61,015 nucleotides of DNA, filler included, from Hausera hauseri (GCA_046269625.1; 10 parts of 10 records of this genome joined end to end with filler, not necessarily neighbours in it); one strand, 5' to 3'. Positions 1 to 36,098 are shown, counted from the whole stretch's first letter. The notes: generated by a model not told the origin, from the letters alone. Numbers and translations: made by a program.

Positions 1-2
1 TT

Positions 3-764
3 GGATGTAGAAGTGAAAACTACAATCCTATAATGATAACAGAAATACATCCAGAGGCAAGAGCACAGGCAACAGTGGAGAATATCCTAAGGGAACTAGA
101 ACCACGCGGAGTAGAAGAAATCTCTACGGGTGATACGCAAGATGTCACAGTTCAAACGGAAGCCAAGAAAAGAGGTAGGCCGAAAGGGACGAAAGTAAGT
201 GACATTCATAACAGAAAAGATAGAAACGAAGAAATAGTAAGACGATTATTATTATCAGGAACAAATGGCACTCTCGAATCAGTAGATATAGACCCACTAC
301 TAAGAACGTTATTGGCTAAGCTGCATACGTCATTTGCTTCATTTGACATGCAGGCAATAATCCCAGACGAACTGTTCACAACGATACGTAATAATATGTT
401 ACGAATAAGTAGGCAATTCTATGAAAACTTCGAGGAAGAACGGATAAATGAAACGCATGAACTGGATATTTTAGAAAAAATGTTTGCAACTGGAATTACG
501 CGCGAGAAAGCTCGAACGGTGATATCATATCTTCTATATAAAATAATAGTAATTAATCACCAAACTCAAAATCGAGAAGAAATTGAGCTGAATATAAGGA
601 CAGCCGTAAAGATTTTGAAAGATACGTTAGGCTATTGGGCTCAATGTAGAGGTGGATGGTTGACTAGCCTGATGACCAATATAATAAGGTCAGGGGAACA
701 AGGAAGAGTAACAGATACGCCAACTGCGACACAACCCAACATCTCTAGATCAAGCACAACAGGT
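3..764 (+). pseudogene. Polyprotein region upstream of the glycoprotein; helical, with AT-hook-like KKRGRPKG
   Basis: Frame is open from nt 3. Colinear with contig-7 ORF 43306-44397: EARAQATVENIL/KARTEQCVGQIM, KKRGRPKG/RPVGRPKK, LLYKIIVIN/LLYLAIKIN. Confidence 0.7.
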
Positions 765-2656
765 ATGTCAATGATGGAGATTATTCAAATCCTCCTAATA
801 ACGTCATTATTAATGCCAAAAGCTGTAGGTAGAGTAGCTTATGACTGCTCTAAACCTAGTGAAGGTCAAAAGTACTCTCTAGTGGATTTGGAGAAATGCC
901 CAGCTGACCCAGAACAGTTAACGACGACAAGTGGTCTGATATACTGGGTATATCAAGAATCCGAATTTATAAAAGGGAAAGTCAGGGAATGTTATGTAAA
1001 AAGATCATTTTTCCTGTTTAATTGTGCCTATTATTCTGGAAATTCCGCCATAACCGAGCCTACGACACCTCTCGAACCAATTATTATATCGGGAGCAGAA
1101 TGTCAAGATGTTTTTAAGATTGGTATCATAACTATACAAAACGCGCATATACCAGCAGTTCGAAATCGACTAAGTATACCAAAATATTTAAGGCAGGAAG
1201 AATAGATAAAACAATGGAAGGCACTTGCAAAGGAGTGGATTACGACGTGGGAGGTACTATTGCGCCTAGAACGGAAACCATAGAAGATTATCAGATCCAG
1301 TTAAAAGAATATGAAGTATTATTCGACTCACAGGCAAAATTGATGACGACTATAAGTGAGTGCGAGTATGATAACGACGAATGTGATACTGGGAAATCGA
1401 AAATGACATTGGAAACCACTGCAAGTAAATGCCAGTTGACGCTATTAAAGAAAGGAAAGTTTAACAAGACGGTAGGAAAAACGGCGGAAAAAGAAACAGC
1501 GACATATAAAGAAGAAACAAAGGAAGTGAAGATGACGGAAGTGGCTACAATCGTATATTCGAAAAATCCGGAAGACATGATGCGATTTAAAATCACGGGA
1601 GTAGCAACTAAGTGTAGTGAAAAGATATCAAAAACTAACTACAAGGGTATCTTAGCAAGAAAAGAAATACCCGGTGCGAAAACCAAAATAGAAAAGAAAG
1701 ACATAAAGTTGACGCAATATTTCGATAATAAGATTGACTTTCTAATCAATTACGTAAGGAAAGAAATTAGAGGTTTATATAGAGAAATAATAATGAATGA
1801 ATGTAAGCTGAATTAGGAAATAATGCGCAATAAAATGGCATTGGTAATAACGAATCTGGACATGGTAGAGCCCGTAATGCCCTTCGGCGACGGAATCATT
1901 GGTAGAGTGATTGGCGAGGTACTGATAACAATAGAATTCAAGAAGGTAAAAGTATCAATCAGACCAACAGAAGAAAACACAATGGAATTACCTGTGGTTT
2001 ACCATACAGAACCGAGATATGTGATGCCAGTAACCAGAATATTATTAGATATTATTGTGAAGCCTACTCCACTATACAATTGCACCTTCATTATGCCGCC
2101 AATGTTTAAGATCGACAACGATAAATGGATTAGAACGCCTAAAAGAGAAGCAGTGCCCAAACCGAAGACGTTAAGTTTGATTAATCTGCAAAAAAATCAA
2201 AAATTCAAACCGCTAACGGGAATATCTCAGGGAGGAATTTACACACAATAAAATCTAGAGGATTATCGACGAATGTTGTTGTTTCCCCCACAAAGACAAA
2301 GAGTGATAACAGAACTGACTAGGAGAGTAATGTGGGATGGCGAAGGATCACCGCAATGGGAAAACCTTATGGGTAAGGACTATCTAAAGAGGGTAACAAG
2401 AAACGTTATGGAAACGATGTGGGGAAAGTACTTATATTTTGGCCAAGCAGCTTCCGGTTTTCTAGCTATATGTTTTATTATTAGCGCCATACGGACAGTA
2501 TTTACGGAACTAGGTAAAGCCTGTGGAATACATGCAGCAGTAGGATGCTCATGAAAAATTTTAATAGCGGTAATACCAGCAGTAGCAAGTTGTTTCTTAG
2601 CAAACCATGATGCACGATGGAAGAGGAAGATACTACAAAGGAAAGACATAAAATAA
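765..2656 (+). pseudogene. Chuvirus-like (class III fusion) glycoprotein: internal signal peptide, ectodomain, TM
   Basis: Signal IIQILLITSLLMPKAVG|RVAYDC, then chuvirus-G-type motifs YDC..YSLVDLEKC, AGRID..GTCKG, YFDNKIDF..LYREII..EC, GEVL, ELPVVY, PPMFKI..W, GGIY, FP, WGKYLYFGQAASGFLAICFII. One frameshift at ~1160-1190; stops at 1814, 2249, 2552. Confidence 0.85.
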
Positions 2657-2896
2657 TCCCTGTATAGTATACATGATGATAATGATGCCGAATATAGTCA
2701 AATGAAGACAAAGAAACGAGTAGCTAGAATCAAACAATTAGTGCTAAAGACACGGGAGCCGAAGTATATACTAAAGTTAATAACTGACCTACCCCGTCTA
2801 GATCCTGTGGATGAATATCATAGACAGTTGTATAATGAACAACCGTTAATAAATCCTTCACCTCCCCGATACGTAGTATATACAGGACTATAGCCT

Positions 2897-3475
2897 ATGC
2901 GTCAAGTGCAACAGATAAAACAGAGTTTTGATGAAAATTTGACTCCCTATGAACACAAACCTAAGTACACTGTTGACGATAAAAATGAAAGACAACCATC
3001 TATAAGACCAGAAATAAAAATAGAGGTGAACGGATATCCAATGACGGCTTTACTAGACACAGGATCTACAACAACGATAATGGGAAGGAGCCAATTGCCA
3101 AAGGAATTAAAAAGAAAGTTACGAAGACCAACTACTACATTAATAAACGTAGGAGCATTCGGTACAGAAGAGGAAATCAAGATGGTCTTAGATGCCAAAA
3201 TTAAGATCGGTGAACAAATGTTGAAACATACTATAAGGATAGCAGATAATTTGACTAACGAGATTTTAATTGGGTGCGATATATTAAATCAACTGGATAA
3301 CGATTACATAGATATGAGAACGTGTCAAATTAAGCCGTTCGATGAAGATCGTAACGAGGGAATGGTTTCTATAACAAGAGACATTACGATTCCACCGCGA
3401 TCCGAGGTAGTGGTACATGAAAAAATAGAAAGTCGTGTTGTACCAGAGATTATATATTTTGAACCGTCCCCATAG
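2897..3475 (+). pseudogene. Retropepsin (aspartic protease) plus Gypsy PR-RT linker
   Basis: ALLDTGS (Asp codon 3056-3058), ILIGCDIL, IPPRSE linker. Confidence 0.92.
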
Positions 3476-3679
3476 GTTATTAAGAAATATAAATTTTTAA
3501 TCGCCCCTCACGTAGATAAAGTAAGAGATGGAAGAGTCCACTTACGAATTTGTAACACAACAAACAAAGAAAAACGATTACGGAAGTGTACCAGACTGGG
3601 AAAAATAACGATTACTGAAGAAATAATAAAAGAAGAAATCTGCCAAATAATATCAGATATATATAAAATAGAAAAGATA

Positions 3680-5183
3680 ATGACAGATAAACTGAAAAGG
3701 AAACCAGAGGAAGACAAAAGAAGAAATAAAACCACGAACATCGATTGGAACGAGAGATTACAAAAATGCGAAATTCTAAGTAATGAAGAGAAGGAGATAT
3801 TAATCGAATTATTGGAAAAGAATAATAGTCGATTTGCACAAACTGACTATGATCTAGGCACGATGAAGGTAATACAGCATGCCATTAAGTTGAAGGACGG
3901 CCAAGACAAGCCAATTAAGAAAAGACCGTATCGATTAGCATACGATAAAAAACAGGAAACACGTAAGATAATAAAAGAAATGAGAGAAAACGAGATAATC
4001 CGACTAAGCTGTTCCCCATGGACGGCGCTTGTGGTAATGGTCAAAAAGAAAGATGGAACTATTAGATTTTGCATAGACTATAGAGCCTTAAACAAAATAA
4101 CAGAGACTGATACATATCCCTTACCAAGAATTGACGCGATACAAGATAAACTACACGGATCGACCATATTCACAACTATCAATATACAAAAGGGTTATTG
4201 GCAAGTGGAGGTGAAAGAAGAAGATAAAGTAAAAACGGCTTTCTCAATTGGAGAAGGGCTATGGGATTTTAATAGGATGCCATTTGGATTAAAGAATGGA
4301 CCACCAACGTTTCAGAGAGGAACAGAACTTCTATTATTAGATGCTCCACATGCCATGGTATATATAGATGACGTAATAATAGCATCACCAAATTTTCAAC
4401 ATCTAAAGGATCTACAGGATCTTTTTGATAGATGCGAAATAATGGGTTTAAAGATAAATCCCAAGAAATGTTCATATGCACAAGCAGAGGTAGATTGCCT
4501 CAGACATAGTGTATAGACATGGTGTAAAACCTCAGGACAAGCTTTTAGGAAAAATAAGAAATTTTCCTAAGCCAGGTACAGTTAGAGAATTACGTCAATT
4601 TCTAGGTTTAACAAACTATTACCGAAGATTCATAAAGGATTTTAGCAACATTGCAAAACCGCTGTATGAATTATTACGTGAAGATCTAGATAAAGTTATA
4701 TGGTCGAACGAATGTCAAAAAGCTTTTGAATATTTAAAAGATAGACTATTAACGGCTCTCATATTAATCTATCCAGACATGACTAAACAATTTATTTTGG
4801 CAACAGACGCAAGTGATTATGGAGTAGGAGCAGTACTATCCCAGAAGGGCGAAGATGGAAAGGAACACCCTGTAGCTTATGCGTCATGAAAACTTAATAA
4901 GCATCAGAAGAAATATGCTGTAATAAAAAAGTTATTAGCAGTAATATTTGCCTTGGAAGTGTTTTCACCCTGTATTAGTGAAAATAAACCGATCTTAATT
5001 TATACGAATCATAGACCGCTCCAATGGCTAAAGCAGCATGAGAATCCAAATTGCAGACTACTACGATGGGCTCTAAAGTTACAACCGTACACATTGAATT
5101 TCCAGTATAAACCTGGATCGCGAAATGCCAACGCCGACTACTTATCGAAAATACCCGATAAATCAGAAACAAAAAGGCAGTAG
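3680..5183 (+). pseudogene. Reverse transcriptase and RNase H (frameshifted)
   Basis: RPYR, SPW, RFCIDYRALN, YPLPRID, RMPFGLKNGP, YIDD (4361-4372), RQFLGLTNYYRRFI, TDASDYGVGAVLSQ, KPGSRNANADYLS. Confidence 0.95.
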
Positions 5184-5200
5184 TCGCAGCTGTATGGAGT

Positions 5201-6296
5201 ATGGATGGATCAGTCGAGAAAATTAAGGCAAATCAAAATGAAGATGTAGAAATAAGGGCCATTAGAAAATACATAAAAGACAAAACCATATTAGTTGACA
5301 TAGAGTTAACCCGTCATCTGGCTCGATTTAGTGAAGCTTACGAGGAAAAAGAAGGATTTCTATATTTTATTAGCCAAAACGGACCTGCATTAGTAATTCC
5401 TAGAAAAAATAGAGCAGTTTTACTGACTCAGTATCACGATGGATTACTTGGTGGACACCAATCGGCCAATAAGACACTAAACAAACTAAAACGGAAATAC
5501 TTTTGGCTAACGATAATGAAAGACGTACAGGAATGGTGCGAGAGCTGCAACCTGTATGGTACCCGGAAAAACACGGGATCAAAATTCAAAGAGCCACTAA
5601 AGGTATGGGACAACCCTCCAGCGCCATTCGAGTTTACCGCAATGGATATAACGGGGCCATTACCGTTGACACGAAATGGAAACAAATATATTTTAGTCTT
5701 CATCGACTATTTCACTAGATGGGCTCTTGCTCTGCCAATGCCTGATATGAAGGCAGACACAATTGCTGAGAGATTTGTGGAAAATATAGTATTTAATTAC
5801 GGAGCCCCAAGGATCCTCTTGACTGATCAAGCTGCAAATTTAACTGGAACTGTAATGCAGTCCATATACGACATCCTGAAGATATTAAAATTACGATCCA
5901 CGCCGGGACATCCGGAGAATAATGGAATGGTTGAGATATATTGGAGATTTAAAAGGAAAATTAAAAACGGTGGTAAATACTAGGCAAGACGATTGGGACG
6001 AATATATCAATACGTGTTTTCGTAAATCGGACATCTGTTCATGAAGCTACTAAGGAGACACCGTTCTACTTAATGTATTTCCTGGATGCAAGATTACCGA
6101 TTGATCTAGATTTTAATGTAAAACCAATTTCCCATTTAATAGAAATAGAAGATTATAAGCAGTTGATGCAGGAACGTCTAAGTTAGATAGGCCCTATAAA
6201 GGACCGTATGAAGTAGAAAAAGTAGGTCTACCGAATATTTGCTTAAAAAAGAATAAAACCTTTGTAAAGGTCCACGTTAATAGATGTAAGCCCGCT
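5201..6296 (+). pseudogene. Integrase (degenerate HHCC, DDE core, GPY/F tail)
   Basis: HDGLLGGH..CESC, MDITGPLP, IDYFTRW, LTDQA, HPENNGMVE; YKGPYEV..VHVNRCKP at ~6190-6295. Confidence 0.92.
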
Positions 6297-6395
6297 GCCA
6301 AGGAGAGCAAACTAAGAAAAGGTGAAAAAGAGTCGGTATGTAGCATTAGTGACAAAGTAATCGAAATAGATTCAATAAATAAACTCCAGATAAAG

Positions 6396-7427
6396 AATGT
6401 CCTATTACTAATCATTATCTTGTTATCTCCAATAGTGATAGGACAGATGACGAATTCAGAAATCGAACGAGCAGAAATGAGACCTGCCATAGCTATACAA
6501 GAAGATTTGTTAATGAAAGCTTTACAATGTAAAATAACATATTCAGAGAAAGGACAGAAAGTAATAATTTGGAGTATGTTAAACCTAATGCCATCGACAT
6601 ATATAATGGGAATACACATGATACCTTGGCATGATAACAAAAGAGACCCTAATGAGAAACAGTACAGTTGTCTATTCCACGCAGGAACCAATCATACAGA
6701 ATGTCCGGTGCACGACTCAGGCGTTCACTACATATACCTTACGCTCATAAGGAAGGAAGGAGATTATTATGGAAGTCAGAAAACGCAATTTTTTAGATCA
6801 ATAGTAGTCCCTACTAGACAACAGATGAACGAAACGTTATTAGATGAAATAATACTCAACCAAATGATAGCAGGACCCATGGGATTCAAAAGCGGAAGAA
6901 GTTGCATTAAGATTATCACAATGATACGATTAGAAAATACCCGAAGAATGACAATAAAACTAATAGAAACAGTAATCCCAGAAGTCAGAGTCTGCAGGAT
7001 TAAAGGCAATCAACAACGAGTGTGTTGTACTGTTATGAGAGGTAAAATATACCACGTCTATTATCTTCTGTTTCGAAAAAGGAATGGTAAATTCAGATAT
7101 CCGGTAGAACTAAAATGACCCACAATGTTCATACGGTATAAAAATCAAAAACAGTACGATGATATACAAGAAAGAATCACGACGCCATCTGTGCAATCCT
7201 CGGCTGATAAAAAAGAGATGACTATCTTACTTAAACCCTACGCTTCATATTATCATCAAAAACGTTCCATATGGGATAACGTAACTATCATAGTGTTGAG
7301 GCTTGATTCGACCGACTCCTCGCATGATCAGAGAAACAATTTGAAAACCTTATCCATAATCACTTTGATATGTGAACCCTTTTTAATAACTAATAAATAT
7401 TTTGACATCTCAATTCTTAATTCTTAG
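6396..7427 (+). pseudogene. Second signal-peptide protein fused in frame after integrase (Cys-containing beta-rich repeats)
   Basis: The GPY/F frame reads without a stop into NVLLLIIILLSPIVIGQ. CLFHAG..EC and CRIKG..RVCC resemble contig-5 CSIHAG..PCC and CNFPY..RKCC. In-frame TGA at 7116-7118. Confidence 0.65.
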
Positions 7428-7781
7428 TTTATGTTAAAACCCTTTGATGGGTATCTATTCCTTCACTGCTGCATGTACACGAACTGTAACCATGAACAGC
7501 CGACAGTATGGGATGATTGAATGTTTTTAATTAAACGAAATTCCCCAAGAAATCTATTTCTAACGATTTTCGAGTCGTAGCAACCATTCTAATTAAATAA
7601 CGATTCTCAAATCGTAACAGTCACTCATGATACATGTATTTCTGCGAAATAATAGAGACGTCCGGAGACTAAGGTAGACAGAAACATCCGGAGATTGGTG
7701 TAGTGGTAATGTACATTAAAACGGATATGTGGTCCTGTGAAGCATTAGCGTAATGGTAAGGCAAATTAGAACGGATGTGGT

Positions 7782-7893
7782 CCCGTGAAGCATTATAGAA
7801 ATAGGAAATTAATGCCTGTCGAGAAATTAGTGTCTGTCCCGTGAAGCATTATAGAAATAGGAAATTAATGTCTGTCGAGAAATTAGTGTCTGT
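7782..7893. repeat. 56-bp tandem direct repeat (two copies, partial third at ~7720-7747)
   Basis: cccgtgaagcattatagaaataggaaattaatg(c/t)ctgtcgagaaattagtgtctgt occurs at 7782 and 7838. Confidence 0.9.
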
Positions 7894-8079
7894 CAAATTC
7901 TAAAAACAAAAATTGATTTTAGAAAACGGGACAAGAACAGAAAATCAATTTCCTGAAAACATCTAAGGTTGCGAGCAAAAATCAAAATTGATTTCAAAAA
8001 TCTATTTAGGAATTCAAAAGAAAACAGGAAACCAACAGGAAATTAGATTTTAAAAATCATTTTAAAACTAAGAACAACC

Positions 8080-8086
8080 TATAAAA
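8080..8086 (+). promoter_or_regulatory. Candidate TATA box
   Basis: cTATAAAAgg lies ~190 nt downstream of the tandem repeats. A short ATG exon with a GTAAAT donor follows at 8354-8408. Confidence 0.35.
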
Positions 8087-10481
8087 GGAAAAACAATTTT
8101 ACAGAAAGACACACAAAATTTTTACTTACTTATTCAATTGTTGCCTGTGTACTACGAATTAAAAGAATTTCCCTGTAATCATAGCAGGTTGAGTATAGGT
8201 TTCACTATACACTTTAACGAATAATTTATTAGTTAACTAAGATATCGGATATTCGAAGCTGTCAAAGAAAAAAGAAAGTATTATCTAAAGACAATTATTC
8301 CAAATTACAGAACTATTACTCTTTGTCCCAAATTTATCTTTGATAAAATCTACATGGCTAAACGACGAACAGAAGAGTTAAATGACCAGCAATCCACAAA
8401 TGGTAAATATTTAATTATCCCATACTTGTCGTTTAAACCATTTGTGAATTTTGTATATATAAATACATTTTTATAAATGAAAATTATGGTCTAATAAATT
8501 ATAATTGATTACCACTATGGTGGCCGAAAGGTAGGTATGTCCCAAAGAATTAGACGGTGTCAGACGAAGAATCGGCAACGACACAGCGATAGAAACAAAG
8601 TTCGTTCCGGGTAACTACGACTCGAAACCTGCCGCGTGACAAGAGATTCAATCATGCATGAAGATGTAGAACGACTTATGTGGGAGAATAGTAATGTCCG
8701 GAGCTGAGGGAGTCGCGATCTAATTAGCACGCGTGGACGAAATGATTCGAGGCGAAGTACAGATGCTAGACAGATTAGTAGTAATGATTAGTGTTATTGT
8801 ATCTATGCACGGTCACGTAGTTGTCAGATATAATTATTTCGTTATATTGCCATTGCACATAATTAATTTTAAATATGTTCTGGTTAATTATCGTTATTTA
8901 GAATTTATTATTTTATGTTTTGATAGTCCTTCAGGATTGTAGAGTATCAGTGTAGATTGTGAACCCTTTTACAAAATTGTATGATTAGAACTTGATAATT
9001 TTGACCTATTATAGTATTTTCTTCTAGTATGTGTGGGAATGATCGAGTAATCATTAGTGGGTTAAAGTTTTAATGTGTAAAAGGGAATTTAGAAAGGTCG
9101 TATAATGCTCAGATATTTTTGAACAATTATTGTCATTTTGAATTTATAGTTTTATATTTTCGTAAAGTTTTTAGGATGTGTAAAATATCAACAGATTGGG
9201 ACTTCGCTTATTGGCATGAATTTGGAGATATTGTCGTAGTGCGTTGTCTATTGCGTGACGGAATGGTTGGTCAATTATCAACAGAATAAAGTTTTGTATT
9301 GTAAAGATAATCTATAAAGGCTGTAGAATTATATAAAAAGTTAAGAAATTCATCTTGTGCCCAGGATTAGAATATAAAAAAAAAGTTAGGAGTCTCTGAA
9401 ACTTTATAATCTGAACATTTTAGAGGTGGATACCACCGGTAAAACTTATTATCTAACACTAAAAATATTAGTCTAATACATGATTAACTAAATATGCGAC
9501 ATGTTAACCCCATAAAATCAAGGAATGAAAGAACTAAATGTCTGAAGAGATTATAAACGAAAGATTAAATAAAAGAATAATCTCGAGTATTCGGCACATT
9601 TGTATTGATGACGGAGGTTATCGTTCTCTTATTCAAAGGATAATATAAGAATGGAAGACATATTAAATAAGTGTGGTTAAGAGACGATTTGAGAATAAAG
9701 AATACGCTGAAATTTAATGCGATAAAATGTTTAGTTCTGATCACACTTATAATAAACATGAAAAAAGGGGTAGCCCTGAACAAAGGAAATATGCACTACA
9801 AATAATAAGAATGTATCATACACTTTGGGAGAAGCAATGTAAATAGACCAATCTTGTAGAGTTTATATGGATGTATCGTGTACATAAATGAACCCTAGTC
9901 ATGAAGTTGTCAGTAAAGATATTAGTGCATAATTATGGCCACACTATAACAGACCAAAGGGCCAGCAAGGATACAACAGATAAAAATTTATAATGGAGGT
10001 TGTCAAAATCTTCGTACTGGAAATTTTGAATATTATAATAATCTAGAAAAATTATTGGTATACAATAGAACGTGTTATGCAGGTACATATTCTATACGAT
10101 AAGCGCATCCTAGGTGATGAAATAATAAGAAGAAACCATGGAATGATTCCATGAATATTATTAAACCTGTTGAAATTAGATTCATAATCTTATTACTTAC
10201 GACTTTGTTCGATAATGCTAAAACAAGGAAAGAAGGAATAATAATAGGTTATATAATAAAAGTGGTGCGAAAATCTGGTAACAAGAAAGAACTATTTGGA
10301 CATAAAATTTAGAAGTAAAGGGCGCTGGATCTTAACATGGGTCAGACCGCCCCAAGAACTCACGATTCTAAAGGATGATAGACGTAATGCCCTACAAGAT
10401 TAACAAGGACAAAAATAATCATTTATATGTTAGTGTGCACTGATTTGTAGAAATACTATAGCCATAACCTAACATATAAAC

Positions 10482-10499
10482 TGGTGCCCCGAGTGAGGA
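10482..10499 (+). promoter_or_regulatory. Primer-binding site complementary to elongator tRNA-Met 3' end
   Basis: TGGTGCCCCGAGTGAGGA versus the complement of the metazoan tRNA-Met(e) 3' end as recalled, TGGTGCCCCGTGTGAGGA (1 mismatch). Confidence 0.7.
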
Positions 10500-10547
10500 C
10501 ATGCTCGAGGGTTAAATTGATATAATTAGTAGAATTATTCTTAACAG

Positions 10548-10868
10548 GTGGTTATTGTGCATATTTTATCAGATATCAGAACCAAGACCACAAAATGTCC
10601 AATATGTTATGACACCCTCGGACTACGATATGCCTTATTCCGGTGCACACACATCATGTGTACCAAGTGTGCTGACCAGTGGTTGTCGAAGAAACAGCAC
10701 TGTCCCTTTTGTAGAAGAACAACCAGCAGCTACAATTGCCTAGGAGTCACCACAGTAGTGATCCTTGATGATGAAGAAGAGGATGAAGAGATAACTGTTG
10801 CAATTAATGAATACCCAGCCGATCTGTATGTAGTCGGCCCAAATGGACTAGTATATATGGAGATATGA
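10548..10868 (+). CDS. RING finger protein with acidic tail
   Basis: CPIC..CTHIMCTKC..W..CPFCR. The frame starts directly after acceptor-like ttcttaacAG (10546-10547). Confidence 0.85.
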   Translation: MVIVHILSDIRTKTTKCPICYDTLGLRYALFRCTHIMCTKCADQWLSKKQHCPFCRRTTSSYNCLGVTTVVILDDEEEDEEITVAINEYPADLYVVGPNGLVYMEI

Positions 10869-10985
10869 GATTACAATATATGTTTATTTCTTGAATTGTT
10901 CTAGTAAAGGGTATTTCATGATTATTAGAGGAAAGGATAATTGATTAAAATAATAATTCAATAAATTAAATAGCAATAGTTTTAG

Positions 10986-11221
10986 GCTGTGCTATCTGCA
11001 AGAAACTTACAGCAGCTTATAATGAAGAGGAGAATTCCTGCCCATTGTGCTACCTCGTCGAAAAAATGAAACAACGAGAAGATCTATTCGAGTGTGCATA
11101 TTGTGGAGAGGAGGCCAATATAAGTATTATGGTTATGGACTCGAACTGTTTTTTGATATGTCCTATCTGCTCCCTGTCGTGGAGTGATTTGGAGGAAATT
11201 GGCAAACTGACTAATTTGTAA
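10986..11221 (+). CDS. Small four-CxxC zinc-binding protein/exon (absent from ORF track)
   Basis: After ttttAG the frame reads CAIC..CPLC..CAYC..CPIC..stop, with AATAAA overlapping the stop. Confidence 0.55.
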
Positions 11222-11431
11222 TAAAAGTAAATTAACTGCTGTGTCTCACGAAATTTGGTTTTGCATTACATGTGTGCCCTAATAAGTGGAATCATGAATT
11301 TAAAATGATTAACGATATATAGAAGTTGTTTTATTGGAAGAACCTGTTATTTGTCAATGAATGAATACTTGTAATAAACTATTACCATTTAAGGTAACGA
11401 AAACAGAAATGAAAATAGAAGTGAAGATAGG

Positions 11432-11854
11432 ATGGAACCGGAAAAATGCCCAATCTGCCTCGAAGAGATAATGCAAGAAAAAACTACACTGCCGTGTAAA
11501 CATAGTTATTGCAGTCCTTGCATCAGCATCTGGTTGGGGGAGCACAACAATTGCCCCTGTTGCCGAAGAGATTGTACTTTCTGTTGGGTATGCTCCAAAT
11601 TAATAGCAGAGGATTTGGCCACCCTATCATGTAGGCATATGTTTTGCCAGTCATGTATACTTGAATACCTAACTTGTTGCCAATTGTGCCCCTATTGTTT
11701 GGAAACAGTAGATTTTTACACTACAGAAGGAGTGATCACGTATCTGAATGTGAACGGTCAAACTTCTATCGCTTTAGTGATTGATGAGGACGACGGCAGT
11801 TGGCCAGAAGCGTGGAGAAATCCACAACCATACACACTGCTGGATATAAACTAA
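11432..11854 (+). CDS. Tandem double-RING protein
   Basis: CPIC..CKHSYCSPC..W..CPCCR, then CWVC..CRHMFCQSC..CPYC. AATAAA follows at ~11867. Confidence 0.88.
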   Translation: MEPEKCPICLEEIMQEKTTLPCKHSYCSPCISIWLGEHNNCPCCRRDCTFCWVCSKLIAEDLATLSCRHMFCQSCILEYLTCCQLCPYCLETVDFYTTEGVITYLNVNGQTSIALVIDEDDGSWPEAWRNPQPYTLLDIN

Positions 11855-11915
11855 AAACAATTTATTAATAAAATTAATTGTGATAAATCGTTTTATTCCC
11901 TTTTATTATTTTAAG

Positions 11916-12199
11916 ATCTGAACTCCATACCCATACTATCACATGGATTCCGACAAAGGACAATACACCAATATTCAGTCTATAACCCAAATGGAGTTTT
12001 TACCACAATAGGAAAGGAATGTACCATTTGCCTTAATAACTATTCAATCAAGCCCGTACAGCTGGTCTCTTGTAAACACCAGTTTTGTCGCTGCTGTATA
12101 AGGGAATGGTTTCTCCAAAATAACACTTGTCCGACGTGCCGTACCATTAATAAACTATTCTTGTACGAGAACAAATATTATACAATAAAGAATTTATAA
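11916..12199 (+). CDS. RING finger protein/exon (absent from ORF track)
   Basis: After ttattattttaAG the frame reads GKECTICLNN..SCKHQFCRCCIREW..TCPTCR to TAA at 12197-12199. Confidence 0.8.
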
Positions 12200-12261
12200 A
12201 TAGAATTTGTTTAAAGTTTTGACTTTTAGAAATATAATGTATTGTAGATGAGATACAGAAA

Positions 12262-12659
12262 ATGAAAAAAGTTCAATTTCAAACTCCCAGATACAGTGAA
12301 TATACAAGACCAGCACAACCTAATACGGTACAGTACATGCTGCATTACCAAAATAGACAATTTGGACCGTCAGCGTTTATTAAAAGATTGACAAGCTACT
12401 CCAGAATGACAGTATTGGACAACTCCATGAGAGATACACAGAACAGGAAAATATCATTCCTCGAATATCCAAATTCACCCGTTCCAGGGGAATTAGCACA
12501 ATTATATGCCAATGCCGGACTATTCCGAACTCCAACAGGACAAATAATATGTATATATTGTCAGGGAGAATTTCAGTATGAACAGATAAAGGATCGACCC
12601 AAAGAAAAACATAAGAAATTACGCCCAACTTGTCCTTACTCGTTGAACGTGGAAGTAAG
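12262..12659 (+). CDS. BIR-domain (IAP-like) protein, truncated by contig end
   Basis: RKISF.EYP..LYANAGLF..CIYC..D.P.EKHKKLRPTCPY matches the BIR C-x2-C-x16-H-x6-C pattern. Confidence 0.82.
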
Positions 12660-17271: not shown

Positions 17272-17670
17272 TGAGTTGTGAATGGCATGAGTTGTGAATG
17301 GCATGAGTTGTGAATGGCATGAGTTGTGAATGGCATGAGTTGTGAATGACATGAGTTGTGAATGGCATGAGTTTTGAATGTCATGAGTTGTGAATGGCAT
17401 GAGTTGTGAATGGCATGAGTTGTAAATGGCATGAGTTTTGAATAGCATGAGTTGTGAATGGCATGAGTTGTAAATGGCATGAGTTGTAAATGGCATGAGT
17501 TGTGAATGTAATGAGTTGTGAATGGCATGAGTTGTGAATGGCATGAGTTGTGAATGGCGTGAATTGTGGTATAACACAAGTTGTTATTTAGCACGAGTTC
17601 TGATTTGGCATGAGTTGTGATTTAGTACGAGTTGTGAATGACACGAGATATGATTTCCACGAGTTGCGAG
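17272..17670. repeat. 16-bp minisatellite (GAGTTGTGAATGGCAT)n, decaying rightward
   Basis: About 18 near-identical copies followed by degenerate ones. It produces spurious repetitive ORFs. Confidence 0.95.
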
Positions 17671-19660: not shown

Positions 19661-20381
19661 ATTTTAAATTTGGTGCGGTAAGCTTATGCAATTGATGCAT
19701 TTAAACAATTTATTATTGAATATTCGAAAATCAATAAAATTCAAATTAAAAATCAATAAATTTGAGATTTAAAAAATCAACAAATTTAACATTTGAATTT
19801 AAAAAGTCCATAAACGAGACAGTGTGCGTTGACATGGTTATAGTTTTCATTATTTCAGAAATAACTTCCAAGAATGGTAAGTTTTTTAATTGCAAATTAT
19901 ACAAAGATTGTATGACTCAGATTCATGATTCGCAGAATTGCCACAATGCGATGCAAAAGTATTTCAGTTACCATTACAACACGACTAAATACTATGTATA
20001 TCCTACATGTGAGGTAGTGTGCCAAACCCGTTATGATGAATTCTACAATGCCCATAAACAACATCTGACTTCCTTTACCAAGTCAAAGAAAGAGATATTC
20101 AATAAGAATATGCCAATGACATCATGCGCTGCTCAAAAAATACAAAGCTGTAGTTCATACACGTATTGCACATCCGCAACACAATCCGCAGAACTGTCAT
20201 GACACATTAAAGCGCTACTACGGACACACATTCAGCCGGATCCAATATTATATTTGCCCAGGATGCGAGACTGTATACGACGCATTATACAAGAACTTTT
20301 ATGAAAATGTCAAAGCTCATCTGACTGACTTCAAGTCAAAGTCCAAGAAGACGATCTTCAATAAGAAACATAATCCTGCTG

Positions 20382-23010
20382 TTGCAGCAGTACAGCAAGT
20401 TCCACACACTTCAACGCAGCACACTGGATCATCAGCGCAGCAGCAGACATTCCAAATACTCCACCAAAAGTCAAAGGCAGCGAGCAGTTGATATCGCAGC
20501 GTTGAAGAAAAAAGTCCGCAGATACGTTATTGCTGCAACTGATCAAACAACGCTCCCTAAGTTTCTGGAATGTACAAAGGATGAAACCATGGGGATTCTC
20601 CAAGACAACATGGTAGAGATCAAGGCCCTTAAAGTCAACTTAAAATTAGAGGCCACATACACCAATGTTGATGGCAAATAATCGAATAGGGCCCTCAAGA
20701 CTGAAAATAAGCCAATATTGGAAGCCACCAATATTTCAGAATGGATGCATGAGGAACGCACGAAGCTGATATGTGAAGCTTAGGAAAGCCAGAACAAGAA
20801 GAGAGGATGGATTCTGGCAACCATAAAGAGATTGCTTATCTTTGTGCACAAGTACTCCCCATGCAAGGCAGCTCCTATATACAGCTTCCGGAATGGATCG
20901 TTAAGAAAACCATACATCAATGTCCATAATGATGATTCAATGTGTTTCAAATACTCCATTCTTTCAAAACTCGTACAGGATCAGAAACATGCATGTCGAG
21001 TTTGGTTGTATAATGATCAACAGTGCAATTATGATTTCCAATGTATTACGTTCCCACCATCCTTAGATGAAATCAAGAAATTCGGGCGACTTAACAATAT
21101 ATCCATCAATATCTTTGGATTAGAGGAAAATAAATTCTATCCGCTACAAACATGTGATGCCGAATTGGAAGATCATAGGGATCTGCTCCTGCTAAACGAT
21201 GAGGAAAAGAGGCATTTCATATGGATCAAGAACCTTGAGCGTCTAGTGAGATCCCAAATTATAAAAGATGACTATAGAATTGAGATCTGCAAACGACGTC
21301 TGTCCCATTTCAGTGGCAAGTTTGCTCTGGAGAAACTTACAGATCACAACATATACTGCAACAAAAATATTGCATCAGGACAGAATTTCCCAAGGATGAC
21401 CATATAGAATTTAGAGTTCGAAAAGAAGCTCAAGGTTCCAATAGTCATCTATTGCGACTGAAGCAATCTTGAGTCCAGTTCAGAGTTGCAGTTCGAATCC
21501 GAAACAAAGCAGCACAACAGCATACCAATATCACGAAATCTCTTCATGTTGTATGTATGCAAAAGGACTGGACAAGGAACCATTTCTATTCAGGGGTCCA
21601 AATGCAGCAGCACATTTTATCAAGCGATTAGAAGAAATCGTCCATAAGATGGAAGTTATGTTGAAGCAACATAAGTTTTTGGATAAAATGACCATGTCAA
21701 AGGAACAAGAAGAATGGCGTGAGGCAACAACATGCTACTTTGCTCCAAATCCTTCACAGCGGAGAATCACAAAGTCAGGGATAACTGCCACTTTACAGGC
21801 AAATATCGAGGCGCAGCCTGCAACAATTGCAATCTACGATGCAGAACAATGACATTCGTGCCTGTAGTATGCCATAATCTCAGTGGTTATGATTCCCATT
21901 TCACAGTCCAAGAATTGAGAAACATTGAAGGTAACATCGATGTGATTCCCAACAGTGAGAAGAAATGTCACCTTTACGAAACATGTTGGAAAAGTCAGAC
22001 TCCGTTTCATAGACAGTCTCCAGTTCATGTCTTCACTTGACAGTTTAATGAGGAACCTCCCAGCAGAAGAACTGGAGGAGACGAAGCGGCTCTTTCCAAT
22101 TACATTTGAATTGCTCAAGAGGAAAGAAGTGTTTCCCTATGAATAAATTGCATCACGGGGATCACTAGATAAAACATCATGGCCGGCCAAGAAGGACTTT
22201 TATAGTCAACTCTCAAACAGTGATATCAGCGATGCGGATTATCAACACGCACGAAAGGGTCTAGGAAGCATTCAAATGTAGGACAATAGGAGAATATAGT
22301 GACATATCTCAAAACCGACGCGCTGCTGGTGACAGATGTCTTTGAAAGCTTCCAGAATGCCACACTTACAAGCCACAGGCTGGATCCAGCTCATTTTTTC
22401 ACAGCTCCAGAAATGAGTTGGGCAGTTATGCTGCGATATACCGGCATTAGACTGCAGATCTTGAAGGATTATGATATGATCCTCATGATCGAGCGAGGCA
22501 TTAGAGGTGGAATATGCCAGGCCATTCACCGGTATAGTGAGACCAACGAGTACATAGCCAAATATGACTCATCAAAGCCATTCTCGTATATCACATACTT
22601 GGATGCCAACAACCTCTATGGATGGGCAATGAGCGCCCCACTGCCGTATGATAACTTCAGATGGGTGAAGAATCAACAGAATCAACATCGAATTGGTCTG
22701 TTATTGGAAAAGGACCAAGAAGCTGATTGCTAAACCGAACTTCCACAACAGCACGATATATGCTAAAAATCTGGTCAGTATTCATATGCTAAAAACATCG
22801 CGAGTTCAACAAGCCAATTTATGTTATCAAAGAAAGTCAGCTTCGCTGACTGAGAGTTCTGCAAGAACAGACTCATAATATCAGAAATGAAGCGCATACA
22901 GTCTCATGACCATCAAACACAAATAGTAGCGCTGCAGAAGAGCTTGGACTGATTCGACGACAAACGGCACAATATGAAAGACGGAATCTACATACTGCCA
23001 CACGCATATG
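20382..23010 (+). pseudogene. Protein-primed family B DNA polymerase (Polinton/adintovirus type), fragmented, internally deleted
   Basis: NVHNDDSMCFKYSI, RDNCHFTGKYRGAAC..CNL, HNLSGYDSHF, RFIDSLQFM, FPYE, YLKTD..DVFE, RGIRGG, YLDANNLYGWAMS, then an abrupt jump to KLIAKPNF and terminal FDDKR. Confidence 0.9.
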
Positions 23011-23761: not shown

Positions 23762-25059
23762 TAGTCACCAAGGTACTTACCTTCTGCCATGCTTCACCCC
23801 TGTTTTGCCATCCGGGCATAAGTAAAACTACGGATATAATTAGGTCACAGTTCTGGTGGGGTTCCTTAGCTAAGGACGTTAGAGAATTCGTTGGGTCATG
23901 TATCCAATGCTCCCAGGCCAAACCCTCTCGGCGTCCTCCAGCGGGTCTCCTAAGGCCACTACTGATTCCTTCACGACCATGGTCTCACATCTCTATGGAC
24001 TTTGTTACTGGCCTACCACTGTCTGGGGGTAAGACTACCATTTTGACTGTTGTTGACAGATTCTCCAAGATGGTTCATCTGGTTGCACTGGAGAAGTTAC
24101 CCTCGGCTAAGGAACTGAGTGACATTATGATAAAGGAGGTCTTTAGACTCCATGGCCTTCCTAAGAACATCGTGTCCGACCGTGGTCCTCAGTTCATTTC
24201 CAAGTTTTGGTCGGAGTTTTGCACCACTCTCAATATTGAACTAAGTCTCTCTTCAGGTTTTCACCCCCAGACCGATGGCCAATCAGAACGAGCCAACCAA
24301 GAACTGGAGACCCGCCTGCGTATACTCTGCGGCAATGATGCAACCAAGTGGGCCAAGAATCTTCCCATTGTTGAACATGCGATGAACTCACTTCCTTCCA
24401 GCGCCACAGGTCTGTCCCCTTTTTATGTGCTATATGGTTTCCAACCACCAATCTTTGCCACCCAGGAACGAGCAGCCATGGTTCCATCGGCCTATCAGGC
24501 AGCCCAAAGATGCCAAAGGATCTGGAGAAGAGCCAGGCAACAACTATTAAGGTCCTCCGCAGTTTACACACGATCCTCCAACCGTCACAGAATTCCAGCG
24601 CCACATTATCAAGAAGGACAGAGAGTTTGGCTGTCAACCAAGGACCTACCCCTTCGTGTAGACTGCAGGAAACTGGCTCCCCGATTCATCGGTCCCTTCC
24701 CTATTTCCAAGGTGGTAAACCCAGTAGCTGTCAAGTTAAAACTCCCCAGTTGCATGAGAATCCACCCTACGTTTCATGTGTCCCGAGTCAAACCGGTCCA
24801 GTTTTCTCGATTCTTGCCCGCCTCCAGGCCCCCTCCACCCGCCCGACTCATCGATGGCGGCCCTGCTTTCACTGTTCGCCGCCTGATACGTTCTCGACGC
24901 TGGGGCAGAGGCACCCAGTACCTCGTCGACTGGGAGGGATATGGTCCTGAGGAAAGGTCATGGGTGCCAGCCCGGCACATCCTCGACAAGACCCTTATCA
25001 GTGATTTCCATCGCGACCATCCTAATCAGCCGGGTGGTCCGTCAAGAGCCGGACCGTAA
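23762..25059 (+). CDS. Chromovirus (sushi-like) integrase plus chromodomain, intact frame
   Basis: [57 protein letters not shown]; GC content is higher than in the other contigs. Confidence 0.95.
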
Positions 25060-25070
25060 GAGAGGGGTAC

Positions 25071-25881
25071 TGTAATGAATCACGTCTTTGTTTTGTTTTT
25101 AGTCCTAGTCACGTCATGTTCTCTCTCTGTCAATTTTTCCCTGCTCATTGTTTTGCCCCTCCCGTCACAGTTTAATCAACATCATGCAACTCACCTGGTA
25201 CTCCTAGTATTTAAGCTCCATGCCCACAGTCATCCAGCGCCAGATTAACGAACGGTTCTCCCAGTAGTTGTCCAGCATTCCTCCATGTCTTGTTTTGTCT
25301 GCCTCGTCACGACCCTCCTTCTGATCTCTGGTTTTACGTCTCCTGCCTTGCTCCTTGTCGGTACTGTATCGGACTCTGCCCTCCTGGTTCTGACCCACGC
25401 TCTTCCTCCTGGACCTCCGCTTCCTGCCTCGCCCCCTGCCGGTACCGTTTTGGACTCTGCCTCCTGGATCTCGACCTCTGCCTGCGTACCCCGACTACGA
25501 GATAAGTCTGCTCCCTCTAACTTGGTTCTGATCTCTGCCTGTATGTGTATGACCCACGCCTGCCTCCCGGAAATCCCTCAAGCGCGCTCTGCGCTCCGTA
25601 ACTCGAAACACGGAAGTACCCACAACAAGACCCGACCCGGACTCTCGAGGTCTTTCCGTGTCTCGTCCCAGATTCCACGGACACTCAGAAGGTTAGTGGC
25701 TAAGTTCCGTTTGAGATCTGCATCCTCGTACCAACTCGCCACTAAACTGTTTCTTTCCTGCATAGAGCTCGGGATCCCCGTGACGTCATCATCCAGAACC
25801 AGCTGCACATTCGTAAATAAAATTGTTAAACCTTTCTCTGTGTCTGGCACTTCAGTGAAACTCATCAACTCAATCATTACA
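25071..25881 (+). repeat. 3' LTR of the chromovirus
   Basis: PPT gagagggg immediately upstream; termini TGTAATGA...TCATTACA form a perfect 8-bp inverted repeat; AATAAA at ~25816. Confidence 0.88.
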
Positions 25882-26803
25882 GAAACACATGGATTTTATT
25901 TTGAAATCAGAAGTTTCAAAAAGAATATAGTGATAGAGTTTCAACCATAGAGATCAAAAGCTATTATTTCAATGTTTTCAGCTGTGTTTGGAGTTCGTCT
26001 TCACAGAATAATTTTTTTGCCTGACTTCCACATGAATCCACTGGATTCATTCACGCAATCACTTTCCTTCACGGTCTCCTTCCTCTGTGTCGCACCACAG
26101 CGGAGAGGAGGCTGTATAAATTGGATTGCAAACTAACTGCTGGAAACTGCGCAGCGGAGTGAAGACGCATGTAGTGTCAATGTGGAGTCATGGATAGACT
26201 GCACAGAAACTTTAAAAAAAACTTTTCTATGATAAAGATTTAACCTTTCATGTGTCTTCCTGTTGATACTCCTGAAGGTGGGACCTCTTAGGTCAGACAT
26301 TATATGTAACAAACTTTGTTTTGAAGACAGAATCTATCGATAAGACACTCCAGCTCTCGTTCTGTTTTAAACCATATGGCTACAATGATCAGAAAGCATG
26401 AAAAACTTATCTAGTCAGTTACAAAATTTCCTTCAGTAGTAGGTTGAGACAGTTGTGGATACAAGAACAGTCAACACTATAAAAAAGCTCTAAAATGTTT
26501 GCAATGTGTTGCAGTTTTTAGACAAATCTGCTCAATGCAGGTTTATCAATCTGTATTAGTAAACAGTTTGTGTAAGCATAACTATGAATTTATTTGTTTT
26601 TTTAAAACAGTTTAACACTTCTCATCAAAGTTGTGTGTGCCACCAAAAGCATAATGTATAATTTGACAGCAGCATTGCAAAATAGCCACAGGTCGCTGTA
26701 ACTAAAGCTACAAGTTATTAACTCGTTCATGAAACATTTTGGCCCAACTGTTAGTGCTTCATTAAAAACTGAATTTGCTCATTACTACTTGTGTGTTCCA
26801 CAG

Positions 26804-27021
26804 CATCCCCAGATGTGCTGCGTGACCTGATGAAGTTTTGGGTTGGGTGGGAACAGCCAACAAAGAATCTCAAGGCTGAGGTTGTAACATCAAGTTACCC
26901 AGTGGCCCTCACCTGCTTCTTCAAGTTGAAGCTCCCCAGCCACTACCAGACCTACAACAGTTTTCACCAGGACTTCATGATGGCACTAAGTTCCATAAGT
27001 TCTGGCTTTGGACTTGTATAG
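26804..27021 (+). CDS. Terminal exon of HECT-domain (G2E3-like) protein
   Basis: Acceptor ttccacAG; LMKFWVG..PVALTCFFKLKLP..Y..F..GFGLV-stop fits the HECT C-lobe with catalytic Cys. Confidence 0.75.
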
Positions 27022-28081
27022 GGCAAAATGTAAACTTCCTGCACCCAGTTTTGTTTTTGAAGGGTTTCATTTGAGTCTGTGGCATCACAATTATCTGTGA
27101 AGATCAAGATGTTTTCCCATAAGTTGCCTATATGGCAAGTTGTTCTGTCGTTTTATGAATGTTAATATAGCTGCTGGTGTCAGCTTTAACACTATAGTTC
27201 ACTTGGATTGTATATACATCTTTTAGCTGTTGTACTCAGTAATTTTAGTAATGGGTGGTGTTGAACAGTCTACACAATACATCCAGATGTTTATACAGCA
27301 GATTTTGTAATGCTTTTAAATTGGCCAATTTTCAAATTTGATTTTCAAAGCACCATCTTGTCCAGCACTGTTGCACCTTTACTGTTGTAAACTGTCCTGC
27401 TATATTTCATATTTTGAAAATATTTAAGAAATGTACAACTTGTTACATTTTATGAATAAAGTGCTTACATTGTTGAAAGTTTTTGTTTAATGGAACATGA
27501 TTGACCTTGTAGCCATTTAAATTGTGTAGAATAGCAGGGATAATCTTTAAATAATTAGTTTTTCACTAACAATGGCCTTTATGCATAAAAAGCTCAAGTA
27601 CAATTTTTTAAACTCGTGGCTGCTGAAAATGTTCCAATTCCAAAAAGACCTCAATGTCCAATGTATTAATTGTCTTACCTTTTGACATGTTATACAAAAA
27701 ATTTTTTCAAATTTGTTAAAGTATGAAATTTGACTTCCAATAATTGAGTTTTCTAATTACCAAGCTGCATCTGTTAAGACCTGGACATCCTATGCTGTAT
27801 GGAGGAAAAAAAAAACAAAGCAATGCAGTGATTTGACTGGAAGATAAGACATTCAGGTGACCCACCTTTCAAAAGTAGACATGGTAACTAGAGGACAGTA
27901 AGGATCTATTTTCTCTATTAAAATATGCCAAGGCAAATTTTGAATTTATAATTACAAAGTATGCATTTTTAGTGTTCATAATTGTATTGCAGAATGAGCG
28001 CATAACATAAGGCACATTCAATAACATTTAAGATGTCCCACAACTTTTATTCAATGTCAGAGAAAAGGCAAATGTTCTCAT

Positions 28082-28710
28082 TTATCTTTGTTCAAGAAGG
28101 TTCTCAACATATTGGACAGTGTTCAGATAAATGTCTGCTCCAAAACAGTCAGATTGCTGCAATGGATCAATGTAGTCTCGCAGTGCCGCCATTGCCAGCT
28201 CTGAAAGAGGACTGTCAAGTTCAGGGATATTGACCCCTGAATGATGCCCATTTGTGTAACCACTGTCCTCCCATGGAATTTCTGAGATGGGTAGTACCTG
28301 AGGGAATACAGAAAAAAGTAGTGTAAAGTGTAAACAAATATTAAAGGTTTAGTGTTAGTGTTCAAAAACAAAGCCTTACTTTTTTGCATTTGAATTTTAA
28401 TTGATTTAGAATGGACATTACTAATGCATTATTTACCTCAGGATTAGGATCTCCAACAGGGTTAAGGTCCTGGCCAACCTGCCACAACTGATTTGGTGTC
28501 AGGTTCTGCTCGGTCCTGATGGGATGGTTGTCCCATGCATCCCTGAAGACATCTAGGCTGGCCTGAATGCGGGGTAGGAAAGTGTAGTGGCAGCAGAATA
28601 AGTGCAGGGCACTACTGATGTCTAGGAAGTGTCCATCCTCAAGGGAATGCAGGATATTGTAGTACACTCCTGTAACACTCATGAACACGTCTCGCCAGAG
28701 GCGCTCAATC
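28082..28710 (-). CDS. Last two exons of integrase-core (rve-like) DDE transposase
   Basis: Exon 28710-28437 reads IERLWRDVF..HYTFLPRIQ..WDNHPIRTE..TPNQLW; GT-AG intron; exon 28297-28082 ends IDPLQQSDCFGADIY..stop. Confidence 0.75.
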
Positions 28711-29640
28711 CTGTAAAAAAAGAAAAAGGGGGAATTAATTTTTTAAAATTTTACTTTAAGATCTGTCCAATGTCCATCAATTATTTTAACACACTCCTTC
28801 ATAAAAAGGTCATGGGGGTCACTGTTGCCCCTATTCGGCTGTCACTATGTGATAGGTATGTATAAGTTGCAAGTCCATCACAAGGACAAAGAGACCAAAC
28901 ACACACTTTGTCCCTCACACGTAGGGACATTTGAGAATTACTAATTAGCCTAACATTCATGTTTTGGAGTTACTGTGTGAACTGTGTATATGTACTGTAT
29001 CTTTTTAGATCATTTGAATATAATAACTTTGTCCCAGTCATACATGGCACCCACGATTATTTAACTATTTAAAAGCCACCCCCTCAACATTTGTTTTTAA
29101 ATTTTATAACTTGTTTTGATTTATGTTGTGTGGCACTGACTCAGAGGAAATTCAGGTGCAATACCAATTATCGCCAGGAGATGGCAGTAGTGGCGCATGA
29201 GAGAAACAGAAGAGCAAGCTAAATGGCTGTCAGTTGAAAATTCCTTAACAGTACAATCAGTATCACAGCACAAAACAAAGCCACTGTTAAGTCAGTCAGA
29301 TTTCTCTTTTCACAGAATAAAATACATTACACTCATAGTCATTGCGTCTGCTCTCACGTGTGTAACACAGAATAAGTTGCCAATGTTTTCTACTAAGCAT
29401 TGTTTACATTCTAATATAACCAACTCATGGAGTGAGTATTGAAAAAAAGTTTTTAGCCATTATTCTAATGTTTTCCATCGTGGCGAGTAACATTTGGTGA
29501 AGATATTATTGCATGAACTTATAGTAGTAAAAGCCAACTTNNNNNNNNNNNNNNNNNNNNNNNNNNNNNNNNNNNNNNNNNNNNTTAATTAATTAANNNN
29601 NNNNNNNNNNNNNNNNNNNNNNNNNNNNNNNNNNNNNNNN

Positions 29641-31390: not shown

Positions 31391-31449
31391 TACGGCCAAA
31401 TAAAAATTATAATCTACGTCAGCGTGAGATAAAAACTTCTTCAATAATT

Positions 31450-32712: not shown

Positions 32713-32884
32713 GCGCCATAAAAATTCAGAACGGGAATTAAGGGAATTGGAAAACCCTGTAGATCCGTATGATAAAATAACCTGACAATTACAGATCAGG
32801 TTATTTTGTCATTAAACAAAGGAATGGTTTTGGTTTAAAACCATCCTTTGTTTTAAGATTAACCTTTATATTCTCATTTTCAGA

Positions 32885-33964: not shown

Positions 33965-34182
33965 TCAAAGATCCCAATATCTAAGGGACATAAATGCTGG
34001 ATTAAACTGGAAACACGAATGGATTCCCAGTAACTCGGACAGAAACTTCGGAGTTTTCCCAAGCTGGAAGGAATCAGTACACGATACAGAAGCGCTACCG
34101 TCCTTACTCACAACCAAGAAGCGTCGAGACAACACCGAAGTGGAATTACTAAATAACTATACAAGGATTAAAAACGGAGAAA

Positions 34183-36096: not shown

Positions 36097-36098
36097 TT

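Follow-up and report, generated by a model that had tools for sequence, protein, structure and literature searches.

Five short zinc-finger frames that lie in series directly behind a primer-binding site (PBS) for elongator tRNA-Met (10482..12659) are probably accessory cargo, carried as a cassette at the 5′ end of a giant Ty3/gypsy element of the Burro kind, and the decayed 3′ half that lies upstream of them (element A) would then be a neighboring or tandem copy. They were found in a window (the whole stretch of DNA analyzed) of 61,015 nucleotides, attributed to Hausera hauseri (GCA_046269625.1) and made up of ten unplaced contigs with N spacers between them; the cassette sits at the end of the first contig, which begins before window position 1 and ends at 12659. 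The original prediction had described a tRNA-Met PBS followed by a RING, a protein with four CxxC motifs, a double RING, a further RING and a BIR frame on the strand of element A, and this is a real observation, borne out by the PBS match, by Pfam and by the zinc ligands. It had further placed an anti-apoptotic and ubiquitin toolkit inside a retroelement, near its 5′ end, which is the best reading because the PBS is real, the DNA is repeated and an element with the Burro domain order lies upstream; a paired long terminal repeat (LTR), a link to gag-pol and any anti-apoptotic or ligase activity are the parts of that claim that are unproven. Its statement that RING E3 ligases and inhibitors of apoptosis (IAPs) are atypical of LTR retrotransposons was wrong, for the Burro elements of planarians have been described as carrying RING, BIR and BCL2-like domains (PMC6431247).

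The Primer-Binding Site and the Five Frames

The 18-nt site at 10482..10499 (+) agrees at 17 of 18 bases with the complement of the 3′ end of human elongator tRNA-Met, a human sequence that may differ from the host's own. That 3′ end was taken from a primer list in which the initiator tRNA differs (bioRxiv 10.1101/2020.12.02.402354), and the site is not an initiator tRNA site; an engineered HIV PBS-Met is nearly identical to it (PMC1084362). With up to three mismatches allowed, the motif had a single match in the window and none in 100 shuffles. One mark of the 5′ end of an LTR retroelement, a PBS of canonical length (18 nt) that can pair with the end of a tRNA, is present. ARAGORN found no tRNA in the window, and a scan of viral contigs for the tRNA 3′ motif gave no match.

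Behind the PBS, all five frames (read from stop to stop, with domains called in Pfam against its curated cut-offs) run on the + strand, as does element A, and all five are open with complete zinc ligands: a RING-HC frame with an acidic tail (10545..10868; zf-RING_2, E 6e-10), the four-CxxC zinc protein (10970..11221; no family above cut-off), a double RING-HC frame (11393..11854; E 3e-15), a fourth frame with one RING-HC (11915..12199; E 3e-11; RING4 hereafter, the first being RING1) and the BIR frame (12238..12659). The “five compact genes” of the original prediction hold as five open frames, of which three (RING1, CxxC and RING4) have no in-frame ATG ahead of the domain; RING4 has none anywhere. 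All eight C3HC4 ligands are present in each of the four RINGs, which by this measure would all belong to the RING-HC class of E3 ligases. The four are 30–40% identical to one another and share no detectable DNA similarity, and therefore do not stem from a recent duplication. The CxxC protein is less easily placed: among 30 look-alikes no common Pfam family was found in any, and a double zinc ribbon is a weak lead only.

The BIR domain is well above its threshold (PF00653, E 1.2e-8; 35.8 bits, with the curated cut-off at 22.9), with the zinc ligands Cx2C-x16-H-x6-C in place. Its frame ends with the contig, six codons past the last BIR cysteine, and therefore cannot be called a complete IAP; of the “BIR/IAP gene” originally predicted, the BIR stands and the IAP is unproven. 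Its best solved relatives are NAIP and livin, and the nearest feature clusters are those of animal BIR proteins, the listed look-alike clusters being 93–100% eukaryote. A single-sequence fold of the BIR (pLDDT 41) was too poor for use, and a weak search for the BIR domain among proteins of 232–2000 aa found it in none of 37 candidates.

RING E3s and IAPs are common in large DNA viruses such as baculoviruses and nudiviruses, and from this general knowledge one might take the cassette for a piece of an integrated virus of that or a similar kind, with the PBS match arising by chance. We consider this barely credible: the match falls exactly at the start of the cassette, no other DNA-virus gene lies on the first contig, the BIR look-alikes are overwhelmingly eukaryote as noted above, and the cassette is repeated in the fashion of a transposon (see below). 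Viral contigs scanned with the double RING and with the BIR, in scans that detect close relatives only, gave no match; a scan with the env-bearing relative P0029 and phage records gave none either.

The animal affinity of the BIR would also suit a second origin, in which the frames are pieces of host RING and IAP genes that were retrocopied and passively multiplied without a role in any element, their missing starts and acceptor-like sites being relics or decay; an out-of-frame ATG in RING4 points the same way. Against this, the five frames are open with their ligands complete where element A is riddled with breaks, five zinc- and ubiquitin-related modules in series do not look like a random draw of host mRNAs, and the divergence of the RINGs excludes recent duplication. 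We therefore regard a passive host origin as very unlikely.

Copy State of the Cassette and of the DNA Ahead of It

Copy state was judged from contigs of four sequencing runs aligned to 1–12659. Summed depth is not copy number, and run X1 may be the window's own source sample, so that depth is read here only as “repeated.” In X1 the summed depth was 346–6978 in the cassette and 3693–29922 in the env-pol part of element A, and the contigs that cover 8416–10346 have a depth of 24–27. Expressed over this low-copy stretch, the successive cassette bins stood at 11, 20, 119, 54 and 220x in X1 and at 7, 12, 48, 40 and 97x in X2, with env-pol medians of 370x and 106x, respectively; the two runs agreed closely across 30 bins (Spearman 0.975), and the BIR bin was the deepest cassette bin in both. 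The cassette is thus repeated DNA in two runs, as is the env-pol of element A. In the comparison with pol that the original prediction had proposed, both are repeated in X1 and X2, and in X1 the first two frames fall far short of the level of pol. A DNA joint from 11910 to 12206, seen in X1 and X2, marks copies that carry no RING4 frame; so clean a loss is as expected for modular genes.

The bin that holds the PBS (10129–10550) reached 83x in X1 and 17x in X2 over the low-copy baseline. Up to 10346 this bin is covered by one low-depth contig; the likely 3′ end of an LTR would accordingly occupy 10347..10481 (+). One X2 contig matches through 10501 and diverges beyond. This depth fits a shared LTR end plus PBS. 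Among the conditions set to refute the original prediction was a PBS match with no LTR before it; what precedes the PBS is repeated sequence at or just before the site, with no LTR partner found and most of the upstream 2 kb low-copy.

The low-copy DNA that separates element A from the PBS (8416..10346, no strand assigned) is represented in X1 by three long near-identical contigs of depth 24–27. Within it, 9500–10320 (+) is purine-rich and resembles decayed coding DNA, with one C2H2-like motif (Pfam E 0.04); a six-frame Pfam search and one PDB search of the stretch gave nothing usable beyond that motif.

As a separate observation, near-identical low-depth pieces of the first contig occur in runs X1–X5, which are filed under several studies and organism codes; such a pattern might come from a parasite or a passenger organism.

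The Upstream Element and Its Relatives

Element A has the Ty3/gypsy pol order of protease (PR), reverse transcriptase (RT), RNase H (RH) and integrase (IN), called in Pfam, in tblastn and in an RT tree (2894..6311, +); it is broken by stops and frameshifts, and tblastn of intact relatives against it showed several frame changes. A segment of fitting size for a dUTPase, which we take to resemble one, lies between PR and RT and has no dUTPase match in Pfam. Ahead of PR is a chuvirus/Monjiviricetes-type glycoprotein (env) in four broken frames (768..2554, +; PF24664, E 1e-10, 1e-6, 6e-19 and 7e-14), and since gag precedes env in the closest relative of the front of element A (P0289, 44% identical), env would stand between gag and pol here as well. 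The part in front of it (1..800, +) is an inner portion of a Gag-Env-Pol polyprotein whose start precedes the window: it aligns from residue 521 of P0289, so that some 520 residues of the polyprotein would precede the window. It holds an AT-hook-like motif, a label that is our assumption, and a Bcl-2-like helical region (Pfam Bcl-2, E 0.055; BOK in the PDB, E 0.077). Bcl-2 hits, all below cut-off (E 8e-5 to 0.012), occurred ahead of the glycoprotein in 4 of 20 relatives scanned. Foldseek with a single-sequence fold of the region (pLDDT 47) gave no match at E 0.001, BOK being seventh with E 0.45, and there was no Bcl-2 protein among 50 VIA rows.

The 3′ side of element A comprises the integrase tail, a hydrophobic stretch and an orphan domain (6159..7118, +; no Pfam match), of which only the first 50–60 residues match most relatives, and a repeated non-coding part with a 56-bp tandem duplication (7119..8415, +; repeat D7), where X1 summed depth falls from about 1160 to 124 and no LTR start could be made out. 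About 220 residues past the integrase tail belong to no family; long extensions bearing a hydrophobic stretch also occur in P0005, P0010, P0011, P0013 and P0016.

The combination of this glycoprotein with pol was present in at least 13 proteins (2966–5000 residues) among the best 120 of 183 matches. In a quick RT tree of 60 rows, with 58 relatives hand-picked from 240, P0289 excluded and P0002 left out for its short cover, element A fell in a group of 17 rows (SH-aLRT 98) that included 11 of the 14 glycoprotein-bearing proteins and five shorter ones. Its closest relatives (P0029, P0194, P0206, P0208, P0210, P0211, P0213, P0214, P0216, P0220, P0222 and P0289) are at most 60% identical in the RT core and have the same order of Gag, ubiquitin-like domain (Ubl), env and pol; most of these 12 env-bearing giant polyproteins are intact single frames of 3000–4000 residues, whereas element A is broken, and gag-env-pol as a single frame is found in intact relatives only. 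P0289 itself has the order Gag, CCHC zinc knuckle, weak Ubl and glycoprotein, with no RING, BIR or MATH domain in the roughly 520 residues ahead of the window start, and P0211 has CCHC, Ubl, env, ankyrin and pol, ankyrin being found among the relatives in P0211 and P0323 only. The Ubl-like matches are weak (P0289, E 0.03; P0206, E 0.018; P0211, E 4e-5), at a position that would precede the window start. A metagenome scan with the RT gave one distant locus, which was not used.

Several extra aspartyl-protease-like domains were seen in P0323, P0208, P0210, P0216 and P0220, with up to seven stretches in P0323 (4844 aa).

Taken together with the cassette, this suggests a layout of LTR, PBS and cassette, then likely a Gag-Ubl-Bcl-2-like-Env-Pol polyprotein. 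Judging by the families to which they belong, the RINGs would engage E2 enzymes and attach ubiquitin to defense or death proteins of the host, and the BIR, together with the Bcl-2-like domain of the polyprotein, would dampen caspase-driven death of the cells that host replication, as reported for the B-IAP of Burro1.

Expression of the Frames

How frames without a start codon of their own might be expressed is suggested by the signals around them. Two bases behind the PBS is an ATG that, with the next 7 nt, makes up a predicted start mini-exon (10501..10510, +) adjoining a phase-1 GT donor, and a T-rich AG stands at the front of each of the five frames. Under a fixed score, the best AG of every one of the five frames has phase 1, the phase of the mini-exon; the joint probability is 0.014 given the AGs that are there and 0.004 if phases were uniform. 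The double RING frame opens exactly at a phase-1 acceptor (11393; its own ATG is at 11432), as does RING4 at a T-rich one (11915), from which 35 codons are open without an ATG (chance about 0.016). The other candidate acceptors end at 10572 (phase 1) and 10547 (phase 0) for RING1 and at 10985 (phase 1) for CxxC, and the BIR frame, with its own ATG at 12262, has phase-1 AGs at 12229 and 12247. At the far end, an AATAAA lies between −15 and +13 nt from the stop in three of the four complete frames, overlapping the stop of CxxC and 13 nt past that of the double RING, and 92 nt past the stop in the fourth.

Under the model that these signals suggest, LTR-driven transcripts would have a short ATG-bearing exon next to the PBS joined to one of the five acceptors, each frame would end near its own AATAAA, and the products made apart from the polyprotein would be small RING E3 ligases along with the zinc and BIR proteins. 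Errantivirus env genes obtain their start codon through splicing. Granted that the cassette is element-borne, we hold the shared-start splicing step tentatively, at a little short of an even chance. The fuller picture, of a Ty3/gypsy element with a program in the style of complex retroviruses, in which a PBS-side mini-exon would be spliced to five alternative terminal exons and a swappable panel of ligases and BIR would be kept apart from Gag-Env-Pol, with modules gained and lost among copies, is rather doubtful as a whole.

The same element-borne cassette could instead be an operon resolved by spliced-leader trans-splicing, the terminal AUG of a flatworm leader serving as start (a share counted within the element-borne reading); such a leader does end in AUG and can supply start codons (PMC9851317). 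The units of acceptor, gene and AATAAA are operon-like, and the good phase-0 acceptor of RING1 at 10547 opens its RING frame for 106 codons. A leader AUG requires phase 0 throughout, however, and the acceptors of CxxC, the double RING and RING4 would then give 27, 25 and 1 codons without a domain. We rate trans-splicing as quite unlikely.

Weighing the Element-Borne Reading

A number of observations weigh against a cassette at the 5′ end of a Burro-like element, and some of them against its expression by splicing in particular. No contig or read connects the BIR frame to a gag, the contig stopping there; self-comparison of 7119–12659 revealed no partner for the LTR, and the purine runs seen were A-rich only, none of them convincing as a polypurine tract. 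The 1.9 kb before the PBS (8416–10346) cannot be an ordinary multi-copy LTR because it is low-copy. The first two cassette frames are much less repeated than pol (11–20x against 370x in X1), and most family members therefore either have no such frames or have them in too diverged a form. A RING or BIR motif occurred in the polyprotein of none of 27 env-bearing relatives, a survey that covered polyproteins only. In alignment, the BIR is without the W and the DDP-like acidic residues that NAIP shows, at positions which presumably line the peptide-binding groove, and the Bcl-2-like call is under the Pfam cut-off everywhere, with a fold model that is too poor. As for splicing, the statistic is post hoc, devised after the pattern was seen; the phase-1 AG of RING1 scores no higher than one in phase 0, for CxxC (10928) and BIR (12229) the best AG runs into an in-frame stop and the next one is required, and the GT donor of the mini-exon is a weak match. 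Some copies diverge behind 10501, and the mini-exon is thus not common to all copies; RING4 has its out-of-frame ATG at 11943, and decay could explain its missing start. AATAAA has a background of about two per kb in neighboring non-coding DNA.

Several of these points would also fit a cassette that belongs to a distinct LTR element, non-autonomous and free of gag-pol, which has PBS and LTR end in common with the Burro-like family and is mobilized by it in trans: the missing gag link, the 1.9 kb of low-copy DNA between cassette and element A, the copies that diverge right behind the PBS and the 27 polyproteins free of RING and BIR, to which the 20-fold variation of depth along the cassette may be added. 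The BIR bin, however, is near the depth of env-pol (220x against 370x in X1; 97x against 106x in X2), the cassette adjoins element A on the same strand, and in Burro accessory open reading frames (ORFs) do lie upstream of the polyprotein (PMC6431247). We consider a non-autonomous carrier unlikely, and the 5′ accessory cassette of a Burro-like element remains our preferred reading.

Other Elements in the Window

Further mobile DNA was seen on the other contigs. At 29641–36271 (+) is another Ty3/gypsy 3′ half, with RNase H, integrase, a DEDD-like exonuclease (RNase_T, E 0.002), orphan frames that number two or three and a broken RING ending at 35416, here 3′ of pol; the same region has a purine run (35397–35408), about 690 bp bounded by TG...CA and, near 36099, a PBS-like site of another kind. 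A second glycoprotein-bearing element occupies 40953–46360 (−); its glycoprotein is preceded by over 3 kb of coding DNA, part of which matches the Ubl-like region of P0213, P0214 and P0220. A chromodomain Ty3/gypsy element of 49–52% GC and an rva_4 integrase, at 23762–29540, are unlike the other contigs and are possibly DNA of another, fish-like organism in the assembly. A decayed DNA polymerase B with neighboring frames (19750–22733, +; PF03175, E 5e-5), presumably Polinton-like, shares its contig with a 16-bp tandem array at the contig's start (17272–17620).

Comparison with Burro and Other Known Elements

The planarian Burro elements exceed 30 kb in length, occur in abundance and are expressed (PMC8532177; PMC11410931). 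They carry AIR1/RING, Smc, MATH, BIR, ankyrin, Ubl and BCL2-like motifs, and their env, a relative of the fusion proteins of mononegaviruses, sits between BCL2 and the protease; accessory ORFs lie upstream, or alternatively these are subdomains of the polyprotein, AIR1/RING, Smc, MATH, BIR and ankyrin being assigned to a giant ORF1 and MATH forming an upstream ORF in one species (PMC6431247). That an LTR element can carry RING and BIR cargo is thus already known (PMC6431247). The RING+BIR region of Burro1 (B-IAP) is reported to shield planarian stem cells against apoptosis (Lee et al. 2026, as cited in PMC13465017). Errantiviruses of GAG-ENV-POL type with a gB-type (chuvirus-like) env have been described in Nematoda, Bryozoa and Platyhelminthes (PMC13524379); the main text of that paper makes no mention of Burro, BIR, RING, apoptosis, accessory or splic-.

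Our element resembles Burro/GYPSM1 in the order of its domains (a weakly Bcl-2-like region, env, PR, RT, RH and IN in element A), in the weak Ubl matches upstream in close relatives, in its probable RING/BIR-type cargo, in its high repeat level and in the accessory ORFs that would lie ahead of the polyprotein, and it shares with the GAG-ENV-POL errantiviruses a chuvirus/gB-type env between the gag and pol of a Ty3/gypsy element. It differs from Burro/GYPSM1 in how the cargo is arranged. There, RING and BIR are inside the giant ORF1; here, the cargo is split into five short frames that follow the PBS immediately and include four RINGs, and none of the 27 related polyproteins has RING or BIR within. 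The B-IAP of Burro1 is one RING+BIR region, whereas here separate RING frames precede a BIR frame that is truncated by the contig end. Burro/GYPSM1 has long paired LTRs and a size of 30 kb; our contig is cut at the window start and at 12659. That the element itself carries these domains is suggested by their position behind a PBS in repeated DNA, with no physical link to gag-pol. By this analogy of description and domain order, the element would work like Burro, and we do not claim membership in Burro proper; no protein named as Burro came up among the matches listed.

A stand-alone array of RING frames plus BIR directly behind a PBS was not found described in the literature searched, in which no search was aimed at splicing. 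If the splicing model were true, annotation based on ORFs would miss genes of the cassette, three of whose five frames have no start codon. Given the Burro1 RING+BIR report (PMC13465017), control of apoptosis by retrotransposons is a live topic, and the panel would yield candidate anti-defense ligases, whose substrates could point to host restriction factors. An expanded, modular RING/BIR panel in an element related to Burro would show that such cargo has been rearranged between polyprotein and stand-alone genes.

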